Shown: positions 17,061-38,098 of the stretch, piece after piece
How the letters are laid out: each line of letters begins with the position of its first letter
How positions within the stretch are numbered: position 1 is the stretch's first letter
NCBI GenBank assembly: GCA_042218075.1
Contig: JBDGRK010000005.1
Coordinates: 36,716-100,715, forward strand
From: Candidatus Nanohaloarchaea archaeon
GTDB taxonomy: Archaea; Nanohalarchaeota; Nanosalinia; Nanosalinales; Nanosalinaceae
DNA length: 64,000 nt
Direction: 5' to 3'
Notes under the pieces: model-generated
The model's input: the letters and a program-made list of their open reading frames with translations, nothing else
Database searches by the model: none
Told to the model about the DNA's origin: nothing
Position numbers and translations under genes: made by a program

Positions 17061-17181
17061 ATGAAAGGTGGACGTTTTTACACCGGAGCATTTTGAAAAT
17101 GACTTAAAACCTTCTAGCTTTAGCTCCAGCTTATTAAGTTCCCGCCCCGAATCTCTCTGCATGGTGGTTCTGAATGGATAG
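17061..17181 (+). promoter_or_regulatory. Putative Tyr-sensing frameshift leader of tyrS
   Basis: uORF 17061-17096 ATG AAA GGT GGA CGT TTT TAC ACC GGA GCA TTT TGA; +1 frame open to TAG 17179-17181, overlapping the tyrS ATG by 8 nt. Confidence 0.75.
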
Positions 17182-18196
17182 AGAGAACAGGAAAGAGTTT
17201 GTCCTCAGGAATACTGCAGAGTTTGTGAAGGAGGAGGAACTGGATGAGGTGCTGGATAAAGATGAACCCCGCGCCTACGTTGGATACGAGACTTCTGGGC
17301 CCGCCCACCTGGGACACTGGATCTCGGTGAGAAAGATGCTGGACCTTCAGAAGGCTGGCTTTCAGCCTGTTATACTCTGGGCGGATCTCCACACATACCT
17401 GAACAAGAAAGGGGAGGAGGAATGGATCGAGGATATGATGGAGTACTGGCAGGCCACCTTCGAGGCACTGGGACTTGAGGCAGAATACACTAAAGGAAGG
17501 AGTTTCGAGGAAAAAACAGAGTATTTCCACGACGTACTGGAGATGGCGAAAGAGACCACGATTAACAGGGGGACTCGATCAATGTCGGAAGTTGCAAGAG
17601 ACGATGAAAACCCTTACATCTCCCAGATAATTTACCCTCTGATGCAGTGCCTGGACATAGAATATCTCGACCTTGACCTGGCGGTCGCGGGCATCGACCA
17701 GAGAAAGATTCACATGCTGGCGAGAGAGAAACTCCCAAAGCTCGGCTACAGGAAGCCTACCTGCCTCCACTGGCCGATGCTGGCTTCACTTTCAGGAACG
17801 GGAGACAAGATGTCGTCCAGCAAGAAAGATACAATGTTCCCTCTGCACGCCGACCCCGATCACATTAGAGAAATTATAGAGGAAGGCTACTGTCCGCAGG
17901 GAGAGGTTGAGGACAATCCTATCATCGAGATAGCAAAGTACTTCATCTTCGGAGCTGATCGAGAGCTAAAGATAGAGAGAAAGGAGGAGTACGGTGGAGA
18001 CATTCACTACGAGGATTTCGAGGCTATGGCTGAAGACTTCGAATCCGGAGATCTACACCCTCTAGACCTGAAGGAAGCTGTAGCTGACGAAGTGGTGGAA
18101 AGGTTTGAGCCGGTGAGGCAGCGATTCAGAGAAGAGCCTGAGCTGCTTGATCCACTGGAAGAGATAGGTCACGAGAGACCCGGATATCTCCAGTGA
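17174..18196 (+). CDS. tyrS: Tyrosine--tRNA ligase (archaeal type)
   Basis: YVGYETSGPAHLGH (HIGH), IYPLMQCLD, GIDQRKIHMLARE, KMSSS. Confidence 0.97.
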   Translation: MDRENRKEFVLRNTAEFVKEEELDEVLDKDEPRAYVGYETSGPAHLGHWISVRKMLDLQKAGFQPVILWADLHTYLNKKGEEEWIEDMMEYWQATFEALGLEAEYTKGRSFEEKTEYFHDVLEMAKETTINRGTRSMSEVARDDENPYISQIIYPLMQCLDIEYLDLDLAVAGIDQRKIHMLAREKLPKLGYRKPTCLHWPMLASLSGTGDKMSSSKKDTMFPLHADPDHIREIIEEGYCPQGEVEDNPIIEIAKYFIFGADRELKIERKEEYGGDIHYEDFEAMAEDFESGDLHPLDLKEAVADEVVERFEPVRQRFREEPELLDPLEEIGHERPGYLQ

Positions 18197-18243: not shown

Positions 18244-18337
18244 ATGAAGGGTGGACGCTTTTCCGGTCGGAAGGTTTTCGAATGAACCAAAACCTGTTCT
18301 AGTTAAAGCTTTCTTCCAAAGTGGTTGGTATGCTTGA
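18244..18337 (+). promoter_or_regulatory. Putative Ser-sensing frameshift leader of serS
   Basis: uORF 18244-18285 ATG AAG GGT GGA CGC TTT TCC ... TGA; +1 frame open to TGA 18335-18337, overlapping the serS ATG by 8 nt. Confidence 0.75.
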
Positions 18338-19595
18338 TATAGATCTTTTCAGGCAGAATCCCGAGGAGATCAGAGAATCACAGAGAAAAAGAGGTGAAGA
18401 TCCTGAAAAAGTAGATGAAGTTGTCGAAGTGGATAGAGAATGGAGAGAGAAGCTCCAGGAGCTGGAATCTCTGCAGCAGGAGAGAAATACTGTTGGAGAT
18501 GAAATTGCTGAAGCAAAACAGAAAGGGAAAGACGCCTCTGAAAAGATCGAAAGGATGCAGCAGCTGAAACAAAAGATAGATGAACTGGAGGATGAGGTAA
18601 AGCAGCTTAAGGAAAGACGTGACAACTTGAGATACCAGATTGGAAACTTGCTGCATGAATCAGTTCCCGAAGGAGAAGGAGAGGAAGACAATCCTGAAGT
18701 CAGGAGCTGGGAGCCTGAAGGAGGAAGAAAGGAGGATTCGAAGCTGGCAGCCCACATTATGGAAGAGCAGAATTTGCTTTCCTCGGAGAAAGCGACTGAG
18801 GTGGGCGGAGAAAGAGCCTATTACCTATCACCAAAACTGATACAGCTTAGTCAGGCACTGATAAACTTCTCTATAGATTTCCTAGAGGAAAGAGGTTTCG
18901 GTGTATACCAGACTCCCTACATGCTGGAGGAAGAATCGATCTCAGCCGCAGTCGATCTTGAAACATTCGAAGAACAGCTTTACCAGGTGAATGAAAACGA
19001 TCGATACCTGATAGGGACCGCGGAGCACGCACTCGCCGCAAAGTACCAGAACGAAGTGATAGAAGAAGAACTTCCCCTCAAACTCGGAGGTTTCTCAACC
19101 AACTTCAGGAGGGAAGCCGGGAAGCACGGCCAGCAGACAAGAGGTCTATGGCGAGTACACCAGTTCGAGAAGGTGGAGCAGTTCGTGTTCTGCAAGCCAG
19201 AAAACCACCTTGATATTCTTGAAGAGACTCTATCCAATGCCGAGGATATAATGAAGCAGCTTGGTCTGCCGTACAGGGTGGTTGATATTTGTGACGGCGA
19301 TATTTCCAACAAGACTTTCAAACAGTACGATATAGAGGTCTGGAGGCCTCCACTTGGAGAGTACGGAGAAGTAGGAAGCTACGGTTCGTGCACAGGCTAC
19401 CAGTCCAGGGAATTTAACACACAGTTCAGAGAGGGAGGCAACAGAAAGACACCCTACACTGTATATGCCACTGGATTAGTACCTCAGAGGATTATTACAG
19501 CTATATTCGAGAACAATCAGGAAGAGGAAGGCATAAAGATTCCAGAACCTCTAAGAGATTACATGGGAGGCAAGGAGTACATCAGGCTGGAATAA
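18330..19595 (+). CDS. serS: Serine--tRNA ligase
   Basis: MLDIDLFR N-terminal coiled coil, LIGTAE, FRREAG...RGLWRVHQFEKVEQF. Confidence 0.97.
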   Translation: MLDIDLFRQNPEEIRESQRKRGEDPEKVDEVVEVDREWREKLQELESLQQERNTVGDEIAEAKQKGKDASEKIERMQQLKQKIDELEDEVKQLKERRDNLRYQIGNLLHESVPEGEGEEDNPEVRSWEPEGGRKEDSKLAAHIMEEQNLLSSEKATEVGGERAYYLSPKLIQLSQALINFSIDFLEERGFGVYQTPYMLEEESISAAVDLETFEEQLYQVNENDRYLIGTAEHALAAKYQNEVIEEELPLKLGGFSTNFRREAGKHGQQTRGLWRVHQFEKVEQFVFCKPENHLDILEETLSNAEDIMKQLGLPYRVVDICDGDISNKTFKQYDIEVWRPPLGEYGEVGSYGSCTGYQSREFNTQFREGGNRKTPYTVYATGLVPQRIITAIFENNQEEEGIKIPEPLRDYMGGKEYIRLE

Positions 19596-21554: not shown

Positions 21555-24500
21555 ATGGAAACCACGGTGATGATCGGGGAGAAGCCGAAAGTGGCATCGC
21601 GACTGGCTAACGCCCTTGGAGATTATTCTGTAGAAGAGAACAGAGGCGTAAAGAACTACGTGATGGAGACAGAAAACAGAGAGATAATCATAGCGCCGGC
21701 GGTTGGCCATATATTCAACCTGGAGCAGACGGAGGAAGGCTGGGATTACCCTGTATTCGACGTGGAGTGGAAACCAATATTCGAGACACAGGACGGAGCG
21801 AACTATGTAAAGAAATACTTCAATAACCTGAGAGATCAACTGGAGAAAGCAGACTCCTACATCAACGCCTGCGACTTCGATGTAGAAGGCGCGACTATAG
21901 GCGGGGTCATACTCAAGGAAATAGCCGAGGCCGAAAATCAGGAGATAGAAAGAATGAAGTTCTCCACGCTGACTCCCTCAGATCTACAGGATGCGTTCGA
22001 CAACCTTGAAGAGTTCGACCACGGAATGACTGAGGCGGGCATCACCCGCCATGTGCTCGACTTCTACTACGGCATCAATGTTTCTCGCGCCTTGATGAAA
22101 GCCGTGAGAAGCAACGACCGCTACAAGACACTATCCACCGGAAGAGTGCAGGGTCCGACCCTGAAGATACTGGCGGAGCGCGAAAGAGAGATAAAGGAGT
22201 TTGAGCCGGAGCCTTACTGGGAGCTCTATCTGATACACGAAGAGTTTGAAGCCCAGTGGGAGGACGAAGAGGACAGGATATGGAAGGAAGAGGTAGCGGA
22301 CAGGATTTTCTCGAAAATCAAAGGAGAGGAAAGGGCAAGAGTTTCAAACATCAAGGTAAACAACTACAAGCACAACCCTCCAATCCCGTTCAACCTGACA
22401 GGACTCCAGAGCGAAGCATCCTCACAGTTCAACCTTTCACCCAAGGCAACGCAGTCGATATCACAGGATCTCTACGAAGAAGGTCTGATCTCGTATCCTA
22501 GAACAGAGTCGCAGAAACTTCCGCCGAAGATAGGTTATAAGAACATCCTCAACAAGCTGAAGAAAAAGAAAGACGATTATAAGGAGAAAGCGGAGAAAGT
22601 TCTGGAGAAGGATAAAAACGATAATCTATACACCACGCAGGGGAAGAAGGAAGATGATGCCCACCCCGCGATATATCCAACGGGAGAGGGATCGACCTCC
22701 AGCCTTTCAAAGAGGGAGAAGCAGGTCTACGACCTGATAGTCAAGCGTTTCTTCGCAGTGTTTGGAAAAACCGCGAAGAGAAAGTCGCTGACGATGACCC
22801 TGAGTGTAAAGGAGGAGGATTTCAAGGCCAAGTCGAAGGTAACGGTGGAGAGAAACTGGTACGACCTCTACGAACCCTATGTGAAGGTGGATGAGGCAGA
22901 ACTTCCCGACCTTGAAGAGGGAGATGTGCTGGATGTAGAAGAGTTCCGGAAGGAGGAGAAGGAGACCCAGCCCCCGAACCGCTACTCTCAATCCAAGATC
23001 GTCAATAAACTTGAAAAGAGAGAGCTGGGAACCAAGTGTCTAACTGAGGAAGAGAAAATAATCGTCAGGGATGGAGATAGTATCGATAGAGTCCCGGTTT
23101 CGGAACTACTTGGAAATCAAAATCGGAATGAAGGCCAGATACAGATTACAAGTTCGAATAAAGATCTGCAAGTAATAGGTTACAACTCAAACTTTGAGAA
23201 AAGTGGCTTTTCAGCCATAAGTAGAAGAAAATTGGAGGAGGATGAAAAAGTTGTAGAATTAAAATTGAGAGATTCTTCGACAATTAATGTAACTTCAAAT
23301 CATCCTGTACTAGTACTTGAGGATGGAGAAGCAGTCTATCGGGAAGCTGGGAAAGTTGATAAAGGAGATAGATTAATCAGATCTCACAGAGCGGATGTTG
23401 GATCAGTTAATCAGATAGGATTTGAAGAATTTATCCAGAAACTGGACAGAAAATCATCTCTCTACGGCGACTGCAAATTCAGGAAAGAGAGAGAAAGACT
23501 TGGTCTCTCCCAGAAGAATATGGCGGATAGATTGGAAACTCCCAGATCCACTCTGAGCAAGGTGGAAAATAGAAAGCATGGTCTGCTGAGATACTGGAAG
23601 AAAGCAAACCTTGAAGAACCAGATTATATCTCTAGTGAGAACTTTGAGTTAAAAATTCCAAATCCTTTCCCGATTAAAATCTCTCCGGCGTTTATGCGAT
23701 TGGTAGGGATGCTAGAAGGGGACGGCTCACTAGATATTGAGGGAAAGAAAAAAGAGAACAAGCTTGATTTCCGTTATCATAATACTGAGAAGGAGCTGGT
23801 TAACCAGTTCCGCAGAGATGTAGAATCAATCTTTAGATTCAGACCTGAGATAAAATGTGAACCGCCAAGCACAGGCGACCTGGATCGTTATTACGTTCGG
23901 TTACCAGCTGTCATTGGTAGGATTATGTCAATTATTACTGAAAATCTATCTCGAAAATGGATAATGAAGCAGGATAGAGGGAGCCATTACGTGGGTGCGC
24001 TACTAGCGGATGAAGGACATGTATCAAATTCAGAACCTAAAATATTCATCTCCAATACTGATAAAGGTATACTTCAAAACTGCAGTGAAATACTTCTTTC
24101 TAAAGGGATAGACTCGAAAATAAATATGTCGCAGAAAAAAATCTATATCAGAGGCCGTAGAAATCTGGAAAAATTCCTAGAAGAAATACCTATATTTTCT
24201 ACCAGAAAACATCAGGCGCTAATAGACCTCCTGGAGAGACACTACAAATTTGGGGGAGAGGAGTCCAGTTTGATGAAACAGAAAAAGATTCTGAGCAAAG
24301 TACAGGAAAAACCGAGGACACTGAAGGATATATCGGAAGGACTTGAAATGTCGGAATCCGCGGTAAAGCATCAACTCTACAATCTAAGAGACAAGGGATA
24401 CGTCGAGAAGAAGATAGAGGGAATCTCAGAAAGACCCAGGAAAATCATATTGTATGAATCAACGGAACCTATATCCGAAACATTCTTCAGCGAACTTGAT

Positions 24501-25202
24501 GAGAAGGCATTTGGAGAGGCTCATACGGCAGAAGTTGGTTCCGTAAATGAAGTAAAATATAGCGGTTATGTCTACGATATATTAGATACAGAGAATAATA
24601 ACTTTATTCTTGACAACAGAACAGTTGTCCACAACTCTACCAGGGCACAGACCGTGGATAGACTCTACGACCGGAACTATATTGAAAACCAGCCGATAGA
24701 GGTCACTGACCTGGGACTTGTGATAGTCGAGACACTGGAAGAATACTCCCCCGACCTTGTCTCAGAAGAGCTGACCAGAGAGTTCGAGAAGAAGATGGAA
24801 TCCATCCGGCAGGAGAAAGAGTCCCGGGAAGAAGTTCTGGACGAAGCCCAGGACAAGCTTATCGAGACTCTGACAGGTTTCCGGGAACACCAGAAGGAGA
24901 TTGGGAAGAAGCTGGTGGAGACTATAGACCAGGAAAGGCAGAGGAGGAGACAGCTCGGTCCATGCGATCAATGTGAGGACGGCACACTGAGGATGATAAA
25001 GAAGGGCGGTTCAAGGTTCGTCGGCTGTTCAAACTACCCTGACTGCGAGAACACCTATCCCCTGCCGAACAACGGCGACATAGAGTCTACCGATGAGATA
25101 TGTGATGAATGCAACACGCCGAAGATTTTCGTGGATAGAGATAAAGGAAAGAACTACAAAATGTGTATTAAAGTCTCATGTCCTACTAAAGACAACTGGT
25201 AA
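21555..25202 (+). CDS. topA: DNA topoisomerase IA with intein
   Basis: IGEKPKVA (TOPRIM), ACDFDVEG, LSTGRVQGPTL, LISYPRTES, C-terminal Zn ribbons; insertion between LGTK and STRA. Confidence 0.96.
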   Translation: METTVMIGEKPKVASRLANALGDYSVEENRGVKNYVMETENREIIIAPAVGHIFNLEQTEEGWDYPVFDVEWKPIFETQDGANYVKKYFNNLRDQLEKADSYINACDFDVEGATIGGVILKEIAEAENQEIERMKFSTLTPSDLQDAFDNLEEFDHGMTEAGITRHVLDFYYGINVSRALMKAVRSNDRYKTLSTGRVQGPTLKILAEREREIKEFEPEPYWELYLIHEEFEAQWEDEEDRIWKEEVADRIFSKIKGEERARVSNIKVNNYKHNPPIPFNLTGLQSEASSQFNLSPKATQSISQDLYEEGLISYPRTESQKLPPKIGYKNILNKLKKKKDDYKEKAEKVLEKDKNDNLYTTQGKKEDDAHPAIYPTGEGSTSSLSKREKQVYDLIVKRFFAVFGKTAKRKSLTMTLSVKEEDFKAKSKVTVERNWYDLYEPYVKVDEAELPDLEEGDVLDVEEFRKEEKETQPPNRYSQSKIVNKLEKRELGTKCLTEEEKIIVRDGDSIDRVPVSELLGNQNRNEGQIQITSSNKDLQVIGYNSNFEKSGFSAISRRKLEEDEKVVELKLRDSSTINVTSNHPVLVLEDGEAVYREAGKVDKGDRLIRSHRADVGSVNQIGFEEFIQKLDRKSSLYGDCKFRKERERLGLSQKNMADRLETPRSTLSKVENRKHGLLRYWKKANLEEPDYISSENFELKIPNPFPIKISPAFMRLVGMLEGDGSLDIEGKKKENKLDFRYHNTEKELVNQFRRDVESIFRFRPEIKCEPPSTGDLDRYYVRLPAVIGRIMSIITENLSRKWIMKQDRGSHYVGALLADEGHVSNSEPKIFISNTDKGILQNCSEILLSKGIDSKINMSQKKIYIRGRRNLEKFLEEIPIFSTRKHQALIDLLERHYKFGGEESSLMKQKKILSKVQEKPRTLKDISEGLEMSESAVKHQLYNLRDKGYVEKKIEGISERPRKIILYESTEPISETFFSELDEKAFGEAHTAEVGSVNEVKYSGYVYDILDTENNNFILDNRTVVHNSTRAQTVDRLYDRNYIENQPIEVTDLGLVIVETLEEYSPDLVSEELTREFEKKMESIRQEKESREEVLDEAQDKLIETLTGFREHQKEIGKKLVETIDQERQRRRQLGPCDQCEDGTLRMIKKGGSRFVGCSNYPDCENTYPLPNNGDIESTDEICDECNTPKIFVDRDKGKNYKMCIKVSCPTKDNW
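23037..24635 (+). mobile_element. Intein with LAGLIDADG endonuclease and HTH domains in TopA (533 aa)
   Basis: Starts CLTEEE, block B VTSNHP, LVGMLEGDG and VGALLADEG motifs, ends VVHN followed by Ser; visibly AT-richer than the exteins. Confidence 0.93.
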
Positions 25203-25207
25203 ATACT

Positions 25208-26707
25208 TTAGATTTTTAGTTTTCTATTGAGCTTTTCAATCTGTTTCTGGCTGTAACTCTGGAACTTTGGTTCATATCTATAAAATGTCTTAAAGAACCG
25301 GATTACCGTCCAATTTCTCAAATAATATTTATACTTATCTCTAATCACAGTTGTGTCAAATAGTTTCTCCAATTTTGAGGCAGTATCACTATTTTTATTC
25401 TGGATTCTTAGCTCATCTTTGCTAGATATCAAGTTAGATGCTATATTATCTATATTTTGGGATACCTTGACAGGCAATTTTACACCTGAATTAGAATTTC
25501 CTCTCAATCCTACTTTGAACTCCACTTCTTCTTTATTCAATTTCTCCAAAAAAGTTTCTCTAGATTCAAATATTGAATCTAACTTCTCTACAGAAGCAAA
25601 ATCGATTTCATTCTCCCAAGCATAAACCTGATTTTTTGATATACCTAATTCAGATCCTAATTCCTTCTGGTATAGATTATTCCTTTCTCTATAATCTCTA
25701 ATCTCATCACCCAATCCTAGGACCCTTAAATCGCTGATTTTTCCAAGATCAAAGTATGGTAAGTAAAAATTATGATTTCTTCTTCCCCTATAACACAGAG
25801 TCCTGGATCCATTTTTCAGCTTTGAAAAAATATGCTTTTTCTTCCTAGGATGTGCAGATCCAATCTTTTCGCAAAAGTATTCGAAATAATTACCTGAAAT
25901 CCTAATCCTGCCAACACCGTTCCTTTCTCTTCTATTTTTAGTCTCAATTCCCATATACTGAAGATCAGAAACACATTGATCGATAAAATGATCAGTTGCG
26001 GATGTTATTGTTACACGGTTACTTTGAGAAGAAACCGCACCATCTGCATCAAATAAACCCCTCCAATAAGCACCCAGCAATTCTTCATCTTCACTAAAAA
26101 GACTTGGCCGCCTTAATTTTCCTTTTTTATAAGATTCTGGCAACTTGAAAAAATATCTGAGGAACCTACAGAACCATTTATTTGAAACAGTCAGTTGAAT
26201 TTTATTTCCTCTATCTAGAATAGTTATAGATTTTTGAGGTATACCAAATAGTCTTTGAATCTTCATTGACATATCCTCGATAAAATCTCTGGAATGTGAG
26301 ATTTCCGAATCATTCTTTCCTCCGTCCACTAAAGTCCATCTAGATGAGTCAGAGAATCCGCCATCACCAGCAGCCAGACCAGCGAAATAAGCATATTCAT
26401 CTGATCTTAATTCAGAAATAAATCTAGGAGGATCAAATCTTGATTTATCTCCATATCCTGTGATGTAATCTATAGCTTCAGCTAGTTCTTTTGAACTATA
26501 TCTTGTTAAAAAGATTTCCAAAGGCCATAAGTTTCGCTCTTCGCAATTCCTAATTAAATAACCTTCATAATTTTCCAGATCAGTAGAATCAAAATTAAAT
26601 CTAGAGTTAAGCTTAGCGTATGGCTTCTCTCTAAAAGTTTTATCCAAATCTCTAGAGACCGATTCAACTATTTTAAGCTCTCCAGACTCGTAAAATAGCT
26701 CTTCCAT
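25208..26707 (-). CDS. Free-standing LAGLIDADG homing-endonuclease-like protein with XRE-type HTH
   Basis: FAGLAAGDG and WRGLFDADG motifs; LYQKELGSELGISKNQVYAWEN HTH; AT-rich; no intein termini. Confidence 0.85.
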   Translation of the reverse strand: MEELFYESGELKIVESVSRDLDKTFREKPYAKLNSRFNFDSTDLENYEGYLIRNCEERNLWPLEIFLTRYSSKELAEAIDYITGYGDKSRFDPPRFISELRSDEYAYFAGLAAGDGGFSDSSRWTLVDGGKNDSEISHSRDFIEDMSMKIQRLFGIPQKSITILDRGNKIQLTVSNKWFCRFLRYFFKLPESYKKGKLRRPSLFSEDEELLGAYWRGLFDADGAVSSQSNRVTITSATDHFIDQCVSDLQYMGIETKNRRERNGVGRIRISGNYFEYFCEKIGSAHPRKKKHIFSKLKNGSRTLCYRGRRNHNFYLPYFDLGKISDLRVLGLGDEIRDYRERNNLYQKELGSELGISKNQVYAWENEIDFASVEKLDSIFESRETFLEKLNKEEVEFKVGLRGNSNSGVKLPVKVSQNIDNIASNLISSKDELRIQNKNSDTASKLEKLFDTTVIRDKYKYYLRNWTVIRFFKTFYRYEPKFQSYSQKQIEKLNRKLKI

Positions 26708-30539: not shown

Positions 30540-30626
30540 AGCAAAACTCTTCCTCTCCAGTTTTTAAACCTCTTGTTCCGGGGTGAATACTTTTAATCCT
30601 GCTCTATCCAAGTATTCCCGTATTCT

Positions 30627-35424: not shown

Positions 35425-36471
35425 CTATCCGGACCCTGTCTCCTCAAGATACTCCTTTCCCTCAGTGCAGTTTTCTCCAAATTTTTCCAGGTCAGTGTTT
35501 GCGCCACAGAGAGGCACCGCGACCTTTCTTCCCTCCAGATTCATGCCTAAATCTCTGCTGAAAAGCACAGCTGACGCAGCAACTGCTCCCGCAGGTTCAG
35601 TAACGACCTTCTGTCTCTCCGCCAGCATAGCTACAGTCGCCTTCACCTGTTCATCGGAAACATAGACCACTTCGTCGACAAGTTCCCTCATGTGCCCGGC
35701 GGGAAGATCTCCTACCCTTCTCGTAGCTATACCTTTCGCAACTGTGTCGACTGAATCTCTCTCGTACACCTTCTCCCGGTTGATAGTCTGCTTCGCGGAA
35801 CCGCACCCCTCTGTCTGTACACCGACAACTCTTGAATCAGGATTCAGGTGCTTTACTGCCGTAGCGACTCCACTTATTAGACCGCCGCCGCCGATGGCCA
35901 CAAAAACAGTGTTGAGTTCCGGGAACTGTTCCACCATCTCTTTTCCCAGTGTTCCCTGCCCTGCTATAACACCCGGATCATTGTATGGATGGACGAAGGT
36001 TAATCCCTGCTCCTTTTCCAGCTTTCTCGCATATTTCTTCGACTCCTCGAACTCCTCTCCATGGAGAACCACATCAGCACCGTAGCCGGAAGTAGCCTCA
36101 ACCTTCGCATCCGGGGTGTTCTCCGGCATCACTATCGTGGCTTCAACACCAAGCTCTCTGGCGGCGAGAGCAACTCCCTGCGCGTGGTTTCCTGAAGAAG
36201 CTGCGATCACTCCCCTCTCCTTATCTTCCCCGGAGAGCCGGGAAATCTTGTTGTAAGCTCCTCTAAGCTTGAAGGCCCCGGTCCTCTGGAAGTTTTCCAT
36301 CTTGAAACCTACTTTATCAGCTCCGGATTTCTCGGCGAAGGTTCTGGAGAAATCCATCGGAGTTTTCTTCGCGATTCCCTCAAGCCTTTCAGCTGCTCCT
36401 TTTACAGAGCTGTAGCTCACCAGTTCTTCGGATTTTGAAGTTTTCAGCGTTGCGTGGTCGTGTTTTGTCAT
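35425..36471 (-). CDS. ilvA: Threonine ammonia-lyase (short form, no regulatory domain)
   Basis: KMENFQRTGAFKLRGA, ASSGNHAQG, IGGGGL, EPAGA; SD GAGGTG before ATG 36471. Confidence 0.93.
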   Translation of the reverse strand: MTKHDHATLKTSKSEELVSYSSVKGAAERLEGIAKKTPMDFSRTFAEKSGADKVGFKMENFQRTGAFKLRGAYNKISRLSGEDKERGVIAASSGNHAQGVALAARELGVEATIVMPENTPDAKVEATSGYGADVVLHGEEFEESKKYARKLEKEQGLTFVHPYNDPGVIAGQGTLGKEMVEQFPELNTVFVAIGGGGLISGVATAVKHLNPDSRVVGVQTEGCGSAKQTINREKVYERDSVDTVAKGIATRRVGDLPAGHMRELVDEVVYVSDEQVKATVAMLAERQKVVTEPAGAVAASAVLFSRDLGMNLEGRKVAVPLCGANTDLEKFGENCTEGKEYLEETGSG

Positions 36472-36474
36472 TTT

Positions 36475-36647
36475 GCGAAGCACCTCTTGGAGAATAATCT
36501 AAGAGAAAGCTCGATTTCTACCCAATAATACCGATAATCGAAATGATGGAAATAGATCCAGAAACTTCAGAAAAATCAGATAGAGTTGGGACTCCCGAAA
36601 CTTTACTCAGATTCAGTAGACCGAAGGATAAAGCGTCCACCCTTCAT
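36475..36647 (-). promoter_or_regulatory. Putative Ile-sensing frameshift leader of ilvA
   Basis: uORF 36603-36647 ATG AAG GGT GGA CGC TTT ATC ... TAA; +1 frame ends ISIISIIGIIG* at 36518; CTCTT/AAGAG hairpin over the SD. Confidence 0.8.
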
Positions 36648-36701
36648 TGACGAACTCACAGAATTATAAAGAGAAATAAGAATTTAAAAAGGGAAGGGAG
36701 A

Positions 36702-37469
36702 TTACATTCCCATAGTTCCCTGAGAATCGACCTCATCTGTTTCCGGAGTTCGGTCTCGAACATAGCTATCTATAGATGTTCCCGGCATGTAGCCTCTTGA
36801 TTTAATGTACTCCTCTCTGGCTTCAACTATAACTTCATCCGGTATCTCAACATCTCTTCGAGCTTCTGGAGCCCCATCATACCTGTTAGCGGTTACAGCA
36901 TAGCGAGTATCTCCTTCGAGAAGCTGGGTTATCTGCCACTCATGAACCGGATTGATATTGCTCCCAGTGACTTCCTCAAGAAAGTTCTCATCATCTATAT
37001 CCGTCTCCTGCGCCAAGACCCTTATCATCTCCAAATCGTCCACACCAAGATATTCCTCCTCTTCAGGCACTCTATCTCCATAGATCAGAGAATCCGGCAT
37101 CTCATCTTTATAGATGAAATCTCCTTCTCCCGGATCCCACCATCTCTGATCTCTCGGATCCTGTCTGAACTCTACAGTCTCAGCACCACGATTATCAGTG
37201 CCGCTCTGAGTTTGAGTTATCACACCTCCATCGGTTCTTGCTTCATAACCCTCTTCTTCAAACATGAATTCTGAGGCGGTTTCCATATCGCTTTTCTCTT
37301 CCATGATAGAATCGTGGGGATGTTCTGTACTTGTACCGGGATCCCGGCTTTTAGCTTCATTCGGATTTGTGGGCGGAGATTCATCATGAAGAATTTCATG
37401 AACCCTGATGCCTTCTCTGAGTCTTTCATCCAATTCTTCCCTATTCTTGTACTGAGACTTACCCATCAT
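36702..37469 (-). CDS. Orphan acidic protein with RTDGG motif
   Basis: 255 aa ORF, SD GGAGGTGA, ATGATG overlap with the mini-ORF stop. Confidence 0.7.
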   Translation of the reverse strand: MMGKSQYKNREELDERLREGIRVHEILHDESPPTNPNEAKSRDPGTSTEHPHDSIMEEKSDMETASEFMFEEEGYEARTDGGVITQTQSGTDNRGAETVEFRQDPRDQRWWDPGEGDFIYKDEMPDSLIYGDRVPEEEEYLGVDDLEMIRVLAQETDIDDENFLEEVTGSNINPVHEWQITQLLEGDTRYAVTANRYDGAPEARRDVEIPDEVIVEAREEYIKSRGYMPGTSIDSYVRDRTPETDEVDSQGTMGM

Positions 37470-37546
37470 CTCTCACCTCCTTCTACAGCTGTTTCCACGG
37501 ATTTTGAGTCGCGTTGCGTATGTTGGGTTTGGTTGTAGTTTGTCAT
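37466..37546 (-). CDS. Mini-ORF (26 aa) coupled to the downstream orphan gene
   Basis: SD GAGGTGA; MTNYNQTQHTQRDSKSVETAVEGGER*. Confidence 0.6.
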   Translation of the reverse strand: MTNYNQTQHTQRDSKSVETAVEGGER

Positions 37547-37548
37547 AG

Positions 37549-37757
37549 AGTGTTCACCTCGAAATTGAGAAACGAGAAATGAACACTGCGCTTTTTACAG
37601 CAGCAGTGCCAGCAGAATCAAAAGTAGCAGTGAAAGTCCAAGATCAATTGAATCGGAAATCGAGAAAATAGCTGGAGCTCGTTTATCGCAATTCCAGAAC
37701 GCGTCCACCTATAGTTAATGGCTCCATACTATTTCCCGTTTAATCAGTCTTTATAAA
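37549..37757 (-). promoter_or_regulatory. Putative Leu-sensing frameshift leader with anti-SD hairpin
   Basis: TTTATAAA 22 nt before ATG 37727; uORF 37683-37727 with GGT GGA CGC GTT CTG; +1 frame ends LGLSLLLLILLALLL* at 37595; AGTGTTCA..CTCG/CGAGGTGAACACT stem at 37549-37587. Confidence 0.8.
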
Positions 37758-38098
37758 TTCTTGAGGTTGGCAGTCGCACTGTGATGTCTGTCTTTGCCAT
37801 GCGCAGGATGCCTGTCTATTTCAGAATTTAGCAATCTTTCCGCTTTATTCACCTTTTTGGCATCTTCAGGTTCAAGTTCTACATTTACATCTCTGAGTTT
37901 TATTTCAGCCAAATCCATCAAGTTATACATAGAATCAGAGGGTGTATCCTGGATAAGATCATTCAAATATTCAGCAGCTTCCTCCAGAGCGTCACTTTCA
38001 TATCTATCGGCAATAGTTTCGATGTCGGCAGTCGCTTCTCTGATATCGTCATATCTATCAAGAGCTTCCTTTGGGTAGACGACCATATTACTTATCAT
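37751..38098 (-). CDS. Hypothetical helical protein
   Basis: 115 aa acidic ORF; start may be 38086. Confidence 0.6.
   Translation of the reverse strand: MISNMVVYPKEALDRYDDIREATADIETIADRYESDALEEAAEYLNDLIQDTPSDSMYNLMDLAEIKLRDVNVELEPEDAKKVNKAERLLNSEIDRHPAHGKDRHHSATANLKNL

Follow-up and report, generated by a model that had tools for sequence, protein, structure and literature searches.

A putative hungry-codon +1 frameshift leader upstream of a threonine/serine dehydratase-like gene in Nanohaloarchaeota

The DNA analyzed here, hereafter the window, is a stretch of 64,000 nucleotides (nt) from a Candidatus Nanohaloarchaea archaeon (assembly GCA_042218075.1, contig JBDGRK010000005.1), and the element in question is the region upstream of a gene for a threonine/serine dehydratase-like protein, both being placed on the minus strand of the window. 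This region is probably a translated cis-regulatory leader that ties the expression of the dehydratase, whose only domain is PALP, to the supply of Ile-tRNA(GAU), working as a sensor based on +1 frameshifting at a hungry isoleucine (Ile) codon. The anatomy of the leader, its conservation among orthologues, the agreement between sensing codons and downstream genes and the agreement between tails and shift sites together point to a frameshift at TTT|ATC, and the gene would be expected to be switched on by Ile shortage by analogy with TrpB, ProC-ProB and the aminoacyl-tRNA synthetases, which carry leaders of the same family. On a broader scale, and with somewhat less assurance, it appears likely that Nanohaloarchaeota regulate their amino-acid supply with codon-programmable switches of this kind, in which a module of ~15 nt, formed by a Shine-Dalgarno (SD)-like GGUGR, a spacer, a weak UUU or GUU and a sensing codon, is retargeted by the identity of the next codon. 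The genome containing the window (G000; other labels of this form denote relatives among 70 genomes of the phylum) has 1.10 Mb in 40 contigs, 46.9% G+C and 92% completeness, and codes for very acidic proteins.

The gene preceding the leader ends at 36702 and is followed by a TATA-like box (Table 1) that is kept in G023, G012 and G052; in most of the G000 leaders such a box is found 28-35 nt before the short open reading frame (ORF). Judged by the geometry of haloarchaeal promoters, a box at this distance from the short-ORF GTG would give a transcript with no leader, or almost none, before the start codon. The short ORF follows the layout of the family, with a start close upstream of the motif and a zero-frame stop within ~15 codons, here 8 codons past the shift site, and its orthologues read MSSA(M/T)KGGRFI(V).., with ATG replacing the GTG position of G000. 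The TTT-ATC site described in the initial annotation is present on the minus strand in the context AAG GGT GGA CGC TTT ATC (GGGTGG-ACGC-TTT|ATC). TTT is the minor Phe codon of G000, accounting for 31% of Phe codons, the codon offered to the A site is a sense codon and not a stop, and the +1 product would be a poorly conserved peptide of 36 codons. The GGGUGG within the short ORF is complementary, by 4 Watson-Crick and 2 G-U pairs, to the UCACCU of the 16S rRNA 3′ end GGAUCACCUCC(A), which was taken from the relatives G021 and G023; the 16S gene was not found in the G000 assembly by a short conserved motif or by RF01959. The AGGUGA of the Gly leader is complementary to the same 3′ end. By eye, GGTG lies 6-7 nt from the main ATG and 5 nt from the TTT of shift sites, so that the element is slightly closer than an initiation SD, as is also the case in prfB, whose shift site reads CUU UGA C.

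In the mechanism proposed, the leaderless short ORF would be translated up to GGGUGG-ACGC-UUU|AUC. When Ile-tRNA is scarce, the A-site AUC would stay empty while peptidyl-tRNA-Phe sits on the weak UUU, and the ribosome would slip by +1, possibly with the help of the SD-like element. The shifted ribosome would bypass the zero-frame stop and run for 36 codons to an Ile-rich tail read by the same tRNA, which ends 46 nt before the dehydratase ATG at 36471, with the SD in between. A shift followed by a stall means that Ile shortage would be read twice, which would prevent rare spontaneous shifts from switching the gene. The tail might act on the start by holding the ribosome at the end of the +1 ORF, by re-initiation at the SD-ATG 41-68 nt further on, or through an alternative RNA fold.

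Table 1. Coordinates of the Ile leader, the dehydratase gene and two synthetase leaders in the window
Feature	Position	Strand	Details
TATA-like box	36690-36681	-	TTTTTAAATT; ~29-31 nt upstream of the short-ORF GTG
Zero-frame short ORF	36659-36603	-	GTG 36659 or internal ATG 36647 to TAA 36605-36603; VSSSMKGGRFILRSTESE, then stop
Possible stem around the short ORF	36657-36583	-	GAGUU 36657-36653 with AACUC 36587-36583; minimum free energy (MFE) and centroid structures
SD-like GGGUGG	36642-36637	-	Within the short ORF; 4 nt separate it from TTT
+1-frame ORF counted from its GTG	36640-36518	-	GTG 36640; MDALSFGLLNLSKVSGVPTLSDFSEVSGSISIISIIGIIG, then stop
Proposed shift site TTT|ATC	TTT 36632-36630, ATC 36629-36627	-	TTT in the P site, Ile sensing codon in the A site
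+1 path entered after TTT	36628-36518	-	36 sense codons, then TAG 36520-36518
Ile-rich tail ISIISIIGIIG	36553-36521	-	7 Ile in 11 codons, every Ile ATT or ATC, none ATA
Imperfect spacer hairpin	36513-36476	-	CGAGC..CTCTT / AAGAG..GCTTCG; predicted MFE and centroid; overlaps the SD
SD of the dehydratase	36488-36481	-	AAGAGGTG, 9 nt before ATG; complementary to the 16S 3′ end
PALP-only Thr/Ser dehydratase-like gene	36471-35425	-	348 amino acids (aa); PF00291, E 6.5e-78, residues 35-323
Tyr leader	17061-17173	+	Before TyrRS 17174-18196; ATG AAA GGT GGA CGT TTT TAC = MKGGRFYTGAF, then stop; +1 frame of 33 codons, its stop 8 nt into the TyrRS start region
Ser leader	18244-18329	+	Before SerRS 18330-19595; ATG AAG GGT GGA CGC TTT TCC; +1 frame of 24 codons, its stop 8 nt beyond the A of the SerRS ATG

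The Ile leader is a member of a family defined by the motif GGTG(G/A)-N4-(T/G)TT followed by the sensing codon, in which GGTG was invariant in all members seen. With up to 2 mismatches, AAGGGTGGACGCTTTAT occurred 7 times in G000, compared with 1 occurrence in a backwards control, and was found in 39 of the 70 genomes, and the exact 12-mer GGTGGACGYKTT was counted 250 times across the 70 genomes and its backwards control 25 times, the summed counts for the window's own family being 202 and 6. In a species-representative collection, the exact 20-nt motif was present in 8 contigs, 7 of them from Nanohaloarchaea, Nanohalarchaeota or an uncultured archaeon and 1 from Nitrospira, a number close to chance. 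All strong motif instances in G000 sit in short intergenic ORFs, and the codon that follows the motif agrees with the next gene: TTC precedes PheS, ACC precedes ThrS, GTT precedes ValS, CCA precedes ProS, TAC precedes TyrS, TCC precedes SerS and GGA, with the motif variant AAAGGTGAATATTTT, precedes GlyS, all seven synthetase genes scoring above curated NCBIfam cut-offs. In other genomes, Thr sites were placed before ThrRS in 9 more genomes, Val before ValRS in 2, Ser before SerRS, Gly before GlyRS, Trp before TrpRS, Trp before TrpB in 2 (G053 and G016) and Pro before a ProC-ProB pair. When the count was restricted to downstream genes specific for one amino acid, the sensing codon corresponded to the amino acid of the gene in 24 of 24 cases, covering ten gene families.

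A relaxed scan of the genome for the motif combined with a +1 stop on a start codon retrieved 20 sites compared with 15 for a +2-frame control and 8 for the reversed motif; given this high background, only strong-motif sites in intergenic short ORFs were counted. A Glu-like site on contig C11, an Ala-like site on contig C20, a His-like site at position 23763 of contig C40, noted by eye before an AbrB-like ORF, and an Arg-like site inside locus L162 were set aside as probable chance occurrences. Also set aside as probably chance or a remnant was a plus-strand site of the window at 30579-30596, where TAA comes after GGGGTGAATACTTT and the +1 frame closes as ATGA on a 254-aa ORF; it was rejected because it has no plausible start upstream and its motif is close to a TATA-like box.

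The tail of the Ile leader provided a second line of evidence. The initial annotation had described a +1 frame free of Ile up to its final 11 codons, and the translation of both frames bore this out; stop-free windows of 11 codons with at least 7 Ile were found 2 times in the whole G000 genome (six frames, 1.10 Mb), and the Ile cluster of the tail exceeds chance. Dehydratase orthologues, 63-70% identical, were recovered in 4 other genomes of the 70 (G023, G057, G012 and G052, from two other genera); the window's own genus, with four genomes, yielded none. In G023, G012 and G052 the upstream region presented a TATA-like box followed by the nearly invariant ATGAGTTCGGCAA(TG/CC)AAGGGTGGACGCTTTAT(C/T), a zero-frame stop 7-8 codons past the site, a +1 frame open for 37-48 codons with a poorly conserved middle section, an Ile-only tail (IGIISIIGMIMG, SGSIISIIAIIG or IISIIGIIAIIG) and a spacer of 41-63 nt with the SD GGAGGT or GGGAGG, ending in ATGAC. 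The G057 tail is also Ile-only (VIGIIGIIGMIMG, then stop), and since its shift-site stretch is represented by N, that comparison covers the tail and the spacer. The two-step check put forward in the initial annotation, with an Ile codon at the shift site and an Ile-rich tail behind it, was supported: the codon after TTT is Ile in the 4 readable leaders (ATC, ATT, ATC, ATC), whose last 12 codons hold 6-8 Ile, 0 Leu and 0 Val, and the tail composition is conserved as Ile in all five dehydratase leaders. The site and the Ile-only tail have been maintained over three genera, in which the enzyme itself is 63-70% identical. A homologue in G027, 48% identical, is not preceded by such a leader, and a metagenome scan with generic PALP peptides kept 80 loci, all of them at most 49% identical, and retrieved no usable dehydratase leader.

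Moreover, tails of this kind are common to the Ile, Leu and Val leaders, where the +1 frame stops 35-70 nt before the SD-ATG after a run of the site's own amino acids, and in 18 of 19 tail-type leaders the composition of the tail follows the codon or codons at the shift site. The last 12 +1 codons hold 5-8 Ile, 0 Leu and 0 Val in 5 leaders with Ile sites only; 8-10 Leu and 0-3 Ile in 4 leaders with Leu sites only; 3-6 Ile and 3-7 Leu in 7 leaders with Ile and Leu sites in tandem; 4 Ile, 4 Leu and 3 Val in 1 leader with Val, Ile and Leu sites; and 4 Val, 3 Leu and 0 Ile in 1 leader with Val and Leu sites. The codons agree as well: the 79 Ile codons of the 19 tails comprise ATT 50, ATC 29 and ATA 0, ATA making up 42% of Ile codons in the long ORFs of G000, while Leu is encoded by CTG 55 times and by CTA 17 times, both being codons used at Leu sites. 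Because tail codons match site codons, tail and site would query the same tRNA, and for the same reason both the zero and the +1 frames would have to be read; the tRNA so shared is, as judged from these codons, the strongest support for the two-step check. The tail is followed by a CA-rich short ORF (ATGACAAAC...) that is ATGA-coupled to the main gene. In the dehydratase this ORF has apparently been fused as an N-terminal extension, the first ~16 codons of the gene (ATGACAAAACAC...) resembling the CA-rich short ORFs that trail other tail-type leaders.

Two other tail-type leaders were observed on the minus strand of the window. At 37727-37595, a Leu leader (MEPLTIGGRVLELR, then stop) has the +1 tail SLLLLILLALLL, also ended by a stop. 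Next come an 8-bp hairpin, AGTGTTCA/TGAACACT, which has a z of -2.5 and overlaps the SD, and a 26-codon CA-rich ORF (37546-37466), ATGA-coupled to a 255-aa acidic orphan protein (37469-36702). This orphan gene adjoins the Ile leader directly upstream, and the order Leu leader, orphan gene, Ile leader and dehydratase is also found in G012. At 27525-27342, a single short ORF has three sites in one frame, for Val (GTG), Ile (ATC) and Leu (CTG), their shared +1 frame ending in VSIILIVLLLIV and a stop; behind it, a 27-codon CA-rich ORF is connected by an overlapping TGA/ATG to a 124-aa orphan (27196-26822) with no Pfam domain.

Several signs that the +1 frame is read came from the synthetase leaders. 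Among 17 of them, the +1 frame was free of stops from the sensing codon to the main ATG in 16, and in the 17th it stopped 1 nt before the ATG; frame 0 held 1-11 stops, and 15 of the 17 leaders had at least 1 in frame +2. Relative to the main ATG, the +1 stop fell with its end between -1 and +13, with an ATGA overlap in 10 of the 17. These data bear on the proposal that the sensor works by stalling alone, in which a ..KGGRF peptide together with the Ile codon would pause the ribosome and remodel the mRNA in an ermC-like manner, the open +1 frame being incidental. Such a sensor would fit the partial preservation of the motif as a peptide, with the synonymous variants CGC/CGT and GGA/GGC, and the local hairpins predicted in G012, G052 and G023, whose loop contains the shift site. 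It is highly doubtful, however, considering that in 16 of 17 synthetase leaders only the +1 frame leads without interruption to the main start, its stop landing on the ATG, that the +1 tails track the sensing codon, and that the peptide is lost in the Gly leader (KGEYF) and at Pro sites (SGGCV and KGGYL) while GGTG..TT stays.

The identity of the P-site codon is informative in the same sense. Over 53 sites, TTT was found before sensing codons starting with A, G or T in 37 of 37 cases, and GTT or CTT before those starting with C in 16 of 16, TTT-C being present in none of the 53. At a TTT-C site a slip would put tRNA-Phe on its better codon TTC and would probably cause a constitutive shift, which may be why this combination is avoided; the rule fits what a slippage mechanism would select. 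In addition, shift sites may be chained. The ProS leader (contig C40 of G000, ~12.4-12.6 kb, L058) contains three Pro sites in frames 0, 1 and 2, each of them in the +1 frame of its predecessor, and the final +1 frame ends as ATGA on proS, which, as read from the sequence, would amount to a serial cascade; Trp sites are chained in a similar way before trpB in G016. The module appears to take several logic forms: direct coupling to a synthetase start, OR gates with Val, Ile and Leu sites sharing a +1 frame, serial AND cascades (Pro and Trp) and two-step checks as in the Ile leader.

It was also considered that the leader consists of two independently started overlapping ORFs without any frameshift, the +1 ORF from GTG 36640 being a classical attenuator peptide. 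A +1-frame GTG exists in every family member through the invariant GGTG, a second TATA-like element, TTTATAAT, lies ~31 nt upstream of that GTG in G000 only, and classical attenuators are typified by leader peptides that end in a run of cognate codons. This second TATA is absent in G023, G012 and G052, and no SD is found upstream of the GTG. Furthermore, two separate ORFs would leave unexplained the zero-frame codon after TTT that matches the gene in all 24 cases, the switch from TTT to GTT before C-starting codons and the chained Pro and Trp sites, and stalling at the sensing codon would leave the GTG hidden under the ribosome and the +1 ORF blocked, which gives the wrong sign for ATGA-coupled synthetases. 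Taken together, these points make independent starts rather improbable.

Two observations on chained sites stand apart. The last +1 frame of the ProS leader holds an 80-codon acidic ORF with its own ATG. On contig C10 of G000 (~50.5-50.9 kb, L055), the first of two Trp sites (MRLKGGCFW) has a +1 frame containing KNFSW, and the +1 frame of the second runs on for 240 codons into an acidic protein without clear family, where a shift would fuse rather than couple.

A number of observations weigh against the reading of the region as a frameshift sensor that switches the dehydratase on. Related genomes are non-independent samples, and some genes behind the leaders code for orphan acidic proteins or have no obvious link to the codon, such as an inositol-monophosphatase-family protein behind a Trp site and a glutamine-amidotransferase-like protein behind a Leu site; among proteins behind Ile, Leu and Trp leaders, Pfam recognized no domain in 6 of 10 and NCBIfam nothing for 3 of 7 more. 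One leader of G008, which by motif has an Ile site only, holds 4 Ile, 4 Leu and 2 Val in its last 12 +1 codons, and IleRS and LeuRS of G000 have no frameshift-type leader. At the Ile site, a slip from UUU to UUA would let tRNA-Phe re-pair at 2 of 3 positions only, full re-pairing being available where the sensing codon starts with U. Since GGTG always creates a GTG in the +1 frame, an independent initiation of the +1 ORF is compatible with the sequence. Moreover, the +1 stop of the dehydratase leaders is 41-68 nt from the ATG and not on it, and the remaining enzymes of the Ile pathway, discussed below, were not found, which weakens the physiological sense of a control by Ile.

RNA folding also counts on this side. 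The imperfect hairpin that the initial annotation had placed over the SD was recovered as the MFE and centroid structure, but its stability is ordinary: at -10.5 kcal/mol (z -0.06) it is not beyond shuffled sequence, 94 of 200 shuffles folding at least as well, a second fold gave z -0.51, and the four complete dehydratase spacers ranged from -0.3 to -1.4, so that by these models the spacer hairpin is unexceptional. Over 20 tail-type leaders, z values went from -4.4 to +0.9, with 5 below -1.9, a tendency towards predicted structure without one uniform hairpin. It had likewise been suggested that stalling or termination at the tail opens the SD. This was not supported by a model in which a ribosome, with the last Ile codon or the stop in its A site, masks the mRNA up to 13 nt counted from the first base of that codon. 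According to the partition function, the SD of each of the five orthologues is largely paired, and masking at the tail left it about as paired as before in 5 of 5 (probability of being unpaired 0.04-0.30 free and 0.02-0.33 masked), its predicted pairing partner lying beyond the reach of a ribosome in either position. No terminator/antiterminator pair with a U-run was evident in G000, where the spacer showed one weak hairpin and T-runs of at most 3. The possible stem around the short ORF (Table 1) is longer in G023, G012 and G052, where the first nucleotides GAGUUCGG pair with CCGAACUC just beyond the stop, and weaker in G000; the Phe and Val leaders, and the Ile and Leu leader of G021, pair other sequences at equivalent positions.

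The absence of a recognizable RNA family bears on another explanation, according to which the motif is an untranslated RNA or DNA element, either a T-box-like binder of tRNA or a protein site, and the sensing codon a specifier triplet. The high conservation of the motif at the nucleotide level and the amino-acid-matching triplet, typical of T-box specifier loops, could be accommodated in this way. Nevertheless, no Rfam family reached the gathering score in the window, including any with the T-box hallmarks (Stem I specifier loop, T-box sequence, terminator or sequestrator), and the region 36400-37800 gave none at E up to 1; beyond the ~15-nt motif, the leaders are short and show little conservation. 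An untranslated element would also give no reason for the in-frame start, the nearby zero-frame stop, the open +1 frame, the ATGA overlaps and the cognate tails, and it is barely credible here.

As regards the gene under control, no second Pfam domain was found in the dehydratase protein, and the best NCBIfam match was TIGR01127 (ilvA_1Cterm) with 361.9 bits, short of the 378.75 required; its scores against the TdcB, hydroxyaspartate-lyase and IlvA models were likewise all under the equivalog cut-offs. The alignment covers positions 1-290 of 380 in TIGR01127 and 12-311 of 499 in TIGR01124, and as it ends at position 290 of 380, the C-terminal regulatory (ACT-like) domain is absent, in agreement with the initial annotation. 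The same annotation had justified the control by Ile on the grounds that threonine dehydratase is the first Ile-specific step, an argument that has lost force: ilvD (PF00920), ilvC (PF01450) and the AHAS-type TPP-enzyme domain (PF02776) were not found in G000, G023 (99% complete), G057, G012 or G052, the five genomes carrying the gene, and a class-IV aminotransferase (Aminotran_4) was all that was found of an Ile-pathway context in G000. The name ilvA is for this reason premature. As a speculation, the orphan Ile-controlled dehydratase might supply 2-oxobutyrate to the Ile pathway of a partner in these host-dependent cells.

These features of the enzyme also enter into a version of the sensor with the same shift and tail and the opposite sign, in which a ribosome stalled at the tail would let the spacer cover the SD and would shut off a catabolic dehydratase. 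The enzyme has no regulatory domain and matches TdcB at 335 bits, about level with the IlvA models, the ilvB, ilvC and ilvD families were not found, and by eye pairing is possible between the tail and the 5′ arm of that spacer's hairpin (TCGATT-AATCGA here, CACTGC-GCAGTG in Leu leaders), a covered tail favouring the SD-blocking fold. Such pairings are short, though, and masking of the tail gave no consistent fall in the modelled accessibility of the SD. The same module also precedes genes expected to rise on starvation, namely those for synthetases, TrpB and ProC-ProB. Repression upon Ile shortage is accordingly regarded as unlikely.

Elsewhere in the window, at ~21470-21250 on the minus strand, a short ORF ending in ..SIAVLVPH and a stop is followed by a CA-rich ORF (MKKNYHNTAFSK...) in a layout like that of tail-type leaders; a ~125-aa ORF and then the class-IV aminotransferase (~20789-19998) lie downstream. 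The arrangement has no GGTGG motif and could be a degenerate or a different leader variant. By eye, a 1215-aa topoisomerase-like ORF at 21555-25202 on the plus strand has an apparent intein-like insertion, and the neighbouring 499-aa ORF at 25208-26707 on the minus strand looks of the homing-endonuclease type.

To our knowledge, no cis-acting sensor of aminoacyl-tRNA supply is known in Archaea. A search of full-text literature, supplementary files aside, returned no natural amino-acid-sensing frameshift leader and, for Nanohaloarchaeota or DPANN, nothing about synthetase regulation, attenuators or leaders of the frameshift type. According to a 2021 review (PMC8211752), a single programmed -1 frameshift has been reported in Archaea, and a 2016 review (PMC5009743) lists release factor, polyamines and antibiotics as what regulatory frameshifting senses, the natural role of hungry-codon frameshifting being described there as unclear. 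If the proposed reading is true, the leader family would be the first natural frameshift-based amino-acid sensor and the first cis-acting aminoacyl-tRNA sensor in Archaea, putting hungry-codon frameshifting to natural use with swappable specificity and visible logic. Its carriers have genomes of ~1 Mb and obtain amino acids from hosts. It is predicted that a swapped codon would cause a different amino acid to be sensed; the module would thereby offer a compact design principle for synthetic translational sensors, and is suggested as a way to tell the limiting amino acids of an uncultured symbiont from sequence alone.

Among known systems, T-boxes likewise form one modular leader family placed before many synthetase and amino-acid genes, with a single triplet setting the specificity; they differ in that they bind uncharged tRNA directly and are untranslated, large, structured bacterial RNAs, with no Rfam match in the present case. 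The attenuators of amino-acid operons (ilvL/ivbL, leuL, trpL, pheL, thrL and hisL) also use a short leader with a run of cognate codons before its stop and sense charged tRNA through the speed of the ribosome, whereas here the run is in the +1 frame behind a shift site with the same codon, the terminator/antiterminator and U-run are not evident in G000, and the setting is archaeal. The pheL attenuator is covered in PMC5009743. In mycobacteria, according to bioRxiv 10.1101/834739, leaderless polycysteine short ORFs similarly act as attenuators rich in one amino acid and responding to it, but these are bacterial, concern a single amino acid and involve no frameshift. Three frameshifting systems are described in PMC5009743. 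In the ketolide-induced shift of ermC, ribosomes likewise continue into the spacer and permit downstream initiation, the trigger being an antibiotic, without a specific sensing codon, in bacteria. Antizyme resembles the leader in its use of a +1 shift as sensor and effector for a small-molecule pool, and is distinguished by sensing polyamines, by shifting at a stop codon, by its eukaryotic origin and by its fused product. Finally, prfB combines, as this leader appears to do, an SD-like element, a slippery P-site codon and a slow A-site codon in a shift that is both sensor and effector; there a stop codon reports on release factor and the output is a fused product, while in this archaeal leader, with its 4-nt spacing after GGUGG, the slow codon is a sense codon that would report on one aminoacyl-tRNA, the sensed amino acid varies with the gene, and the output would be the translation of the downstream gene, through coupling or through the tail.

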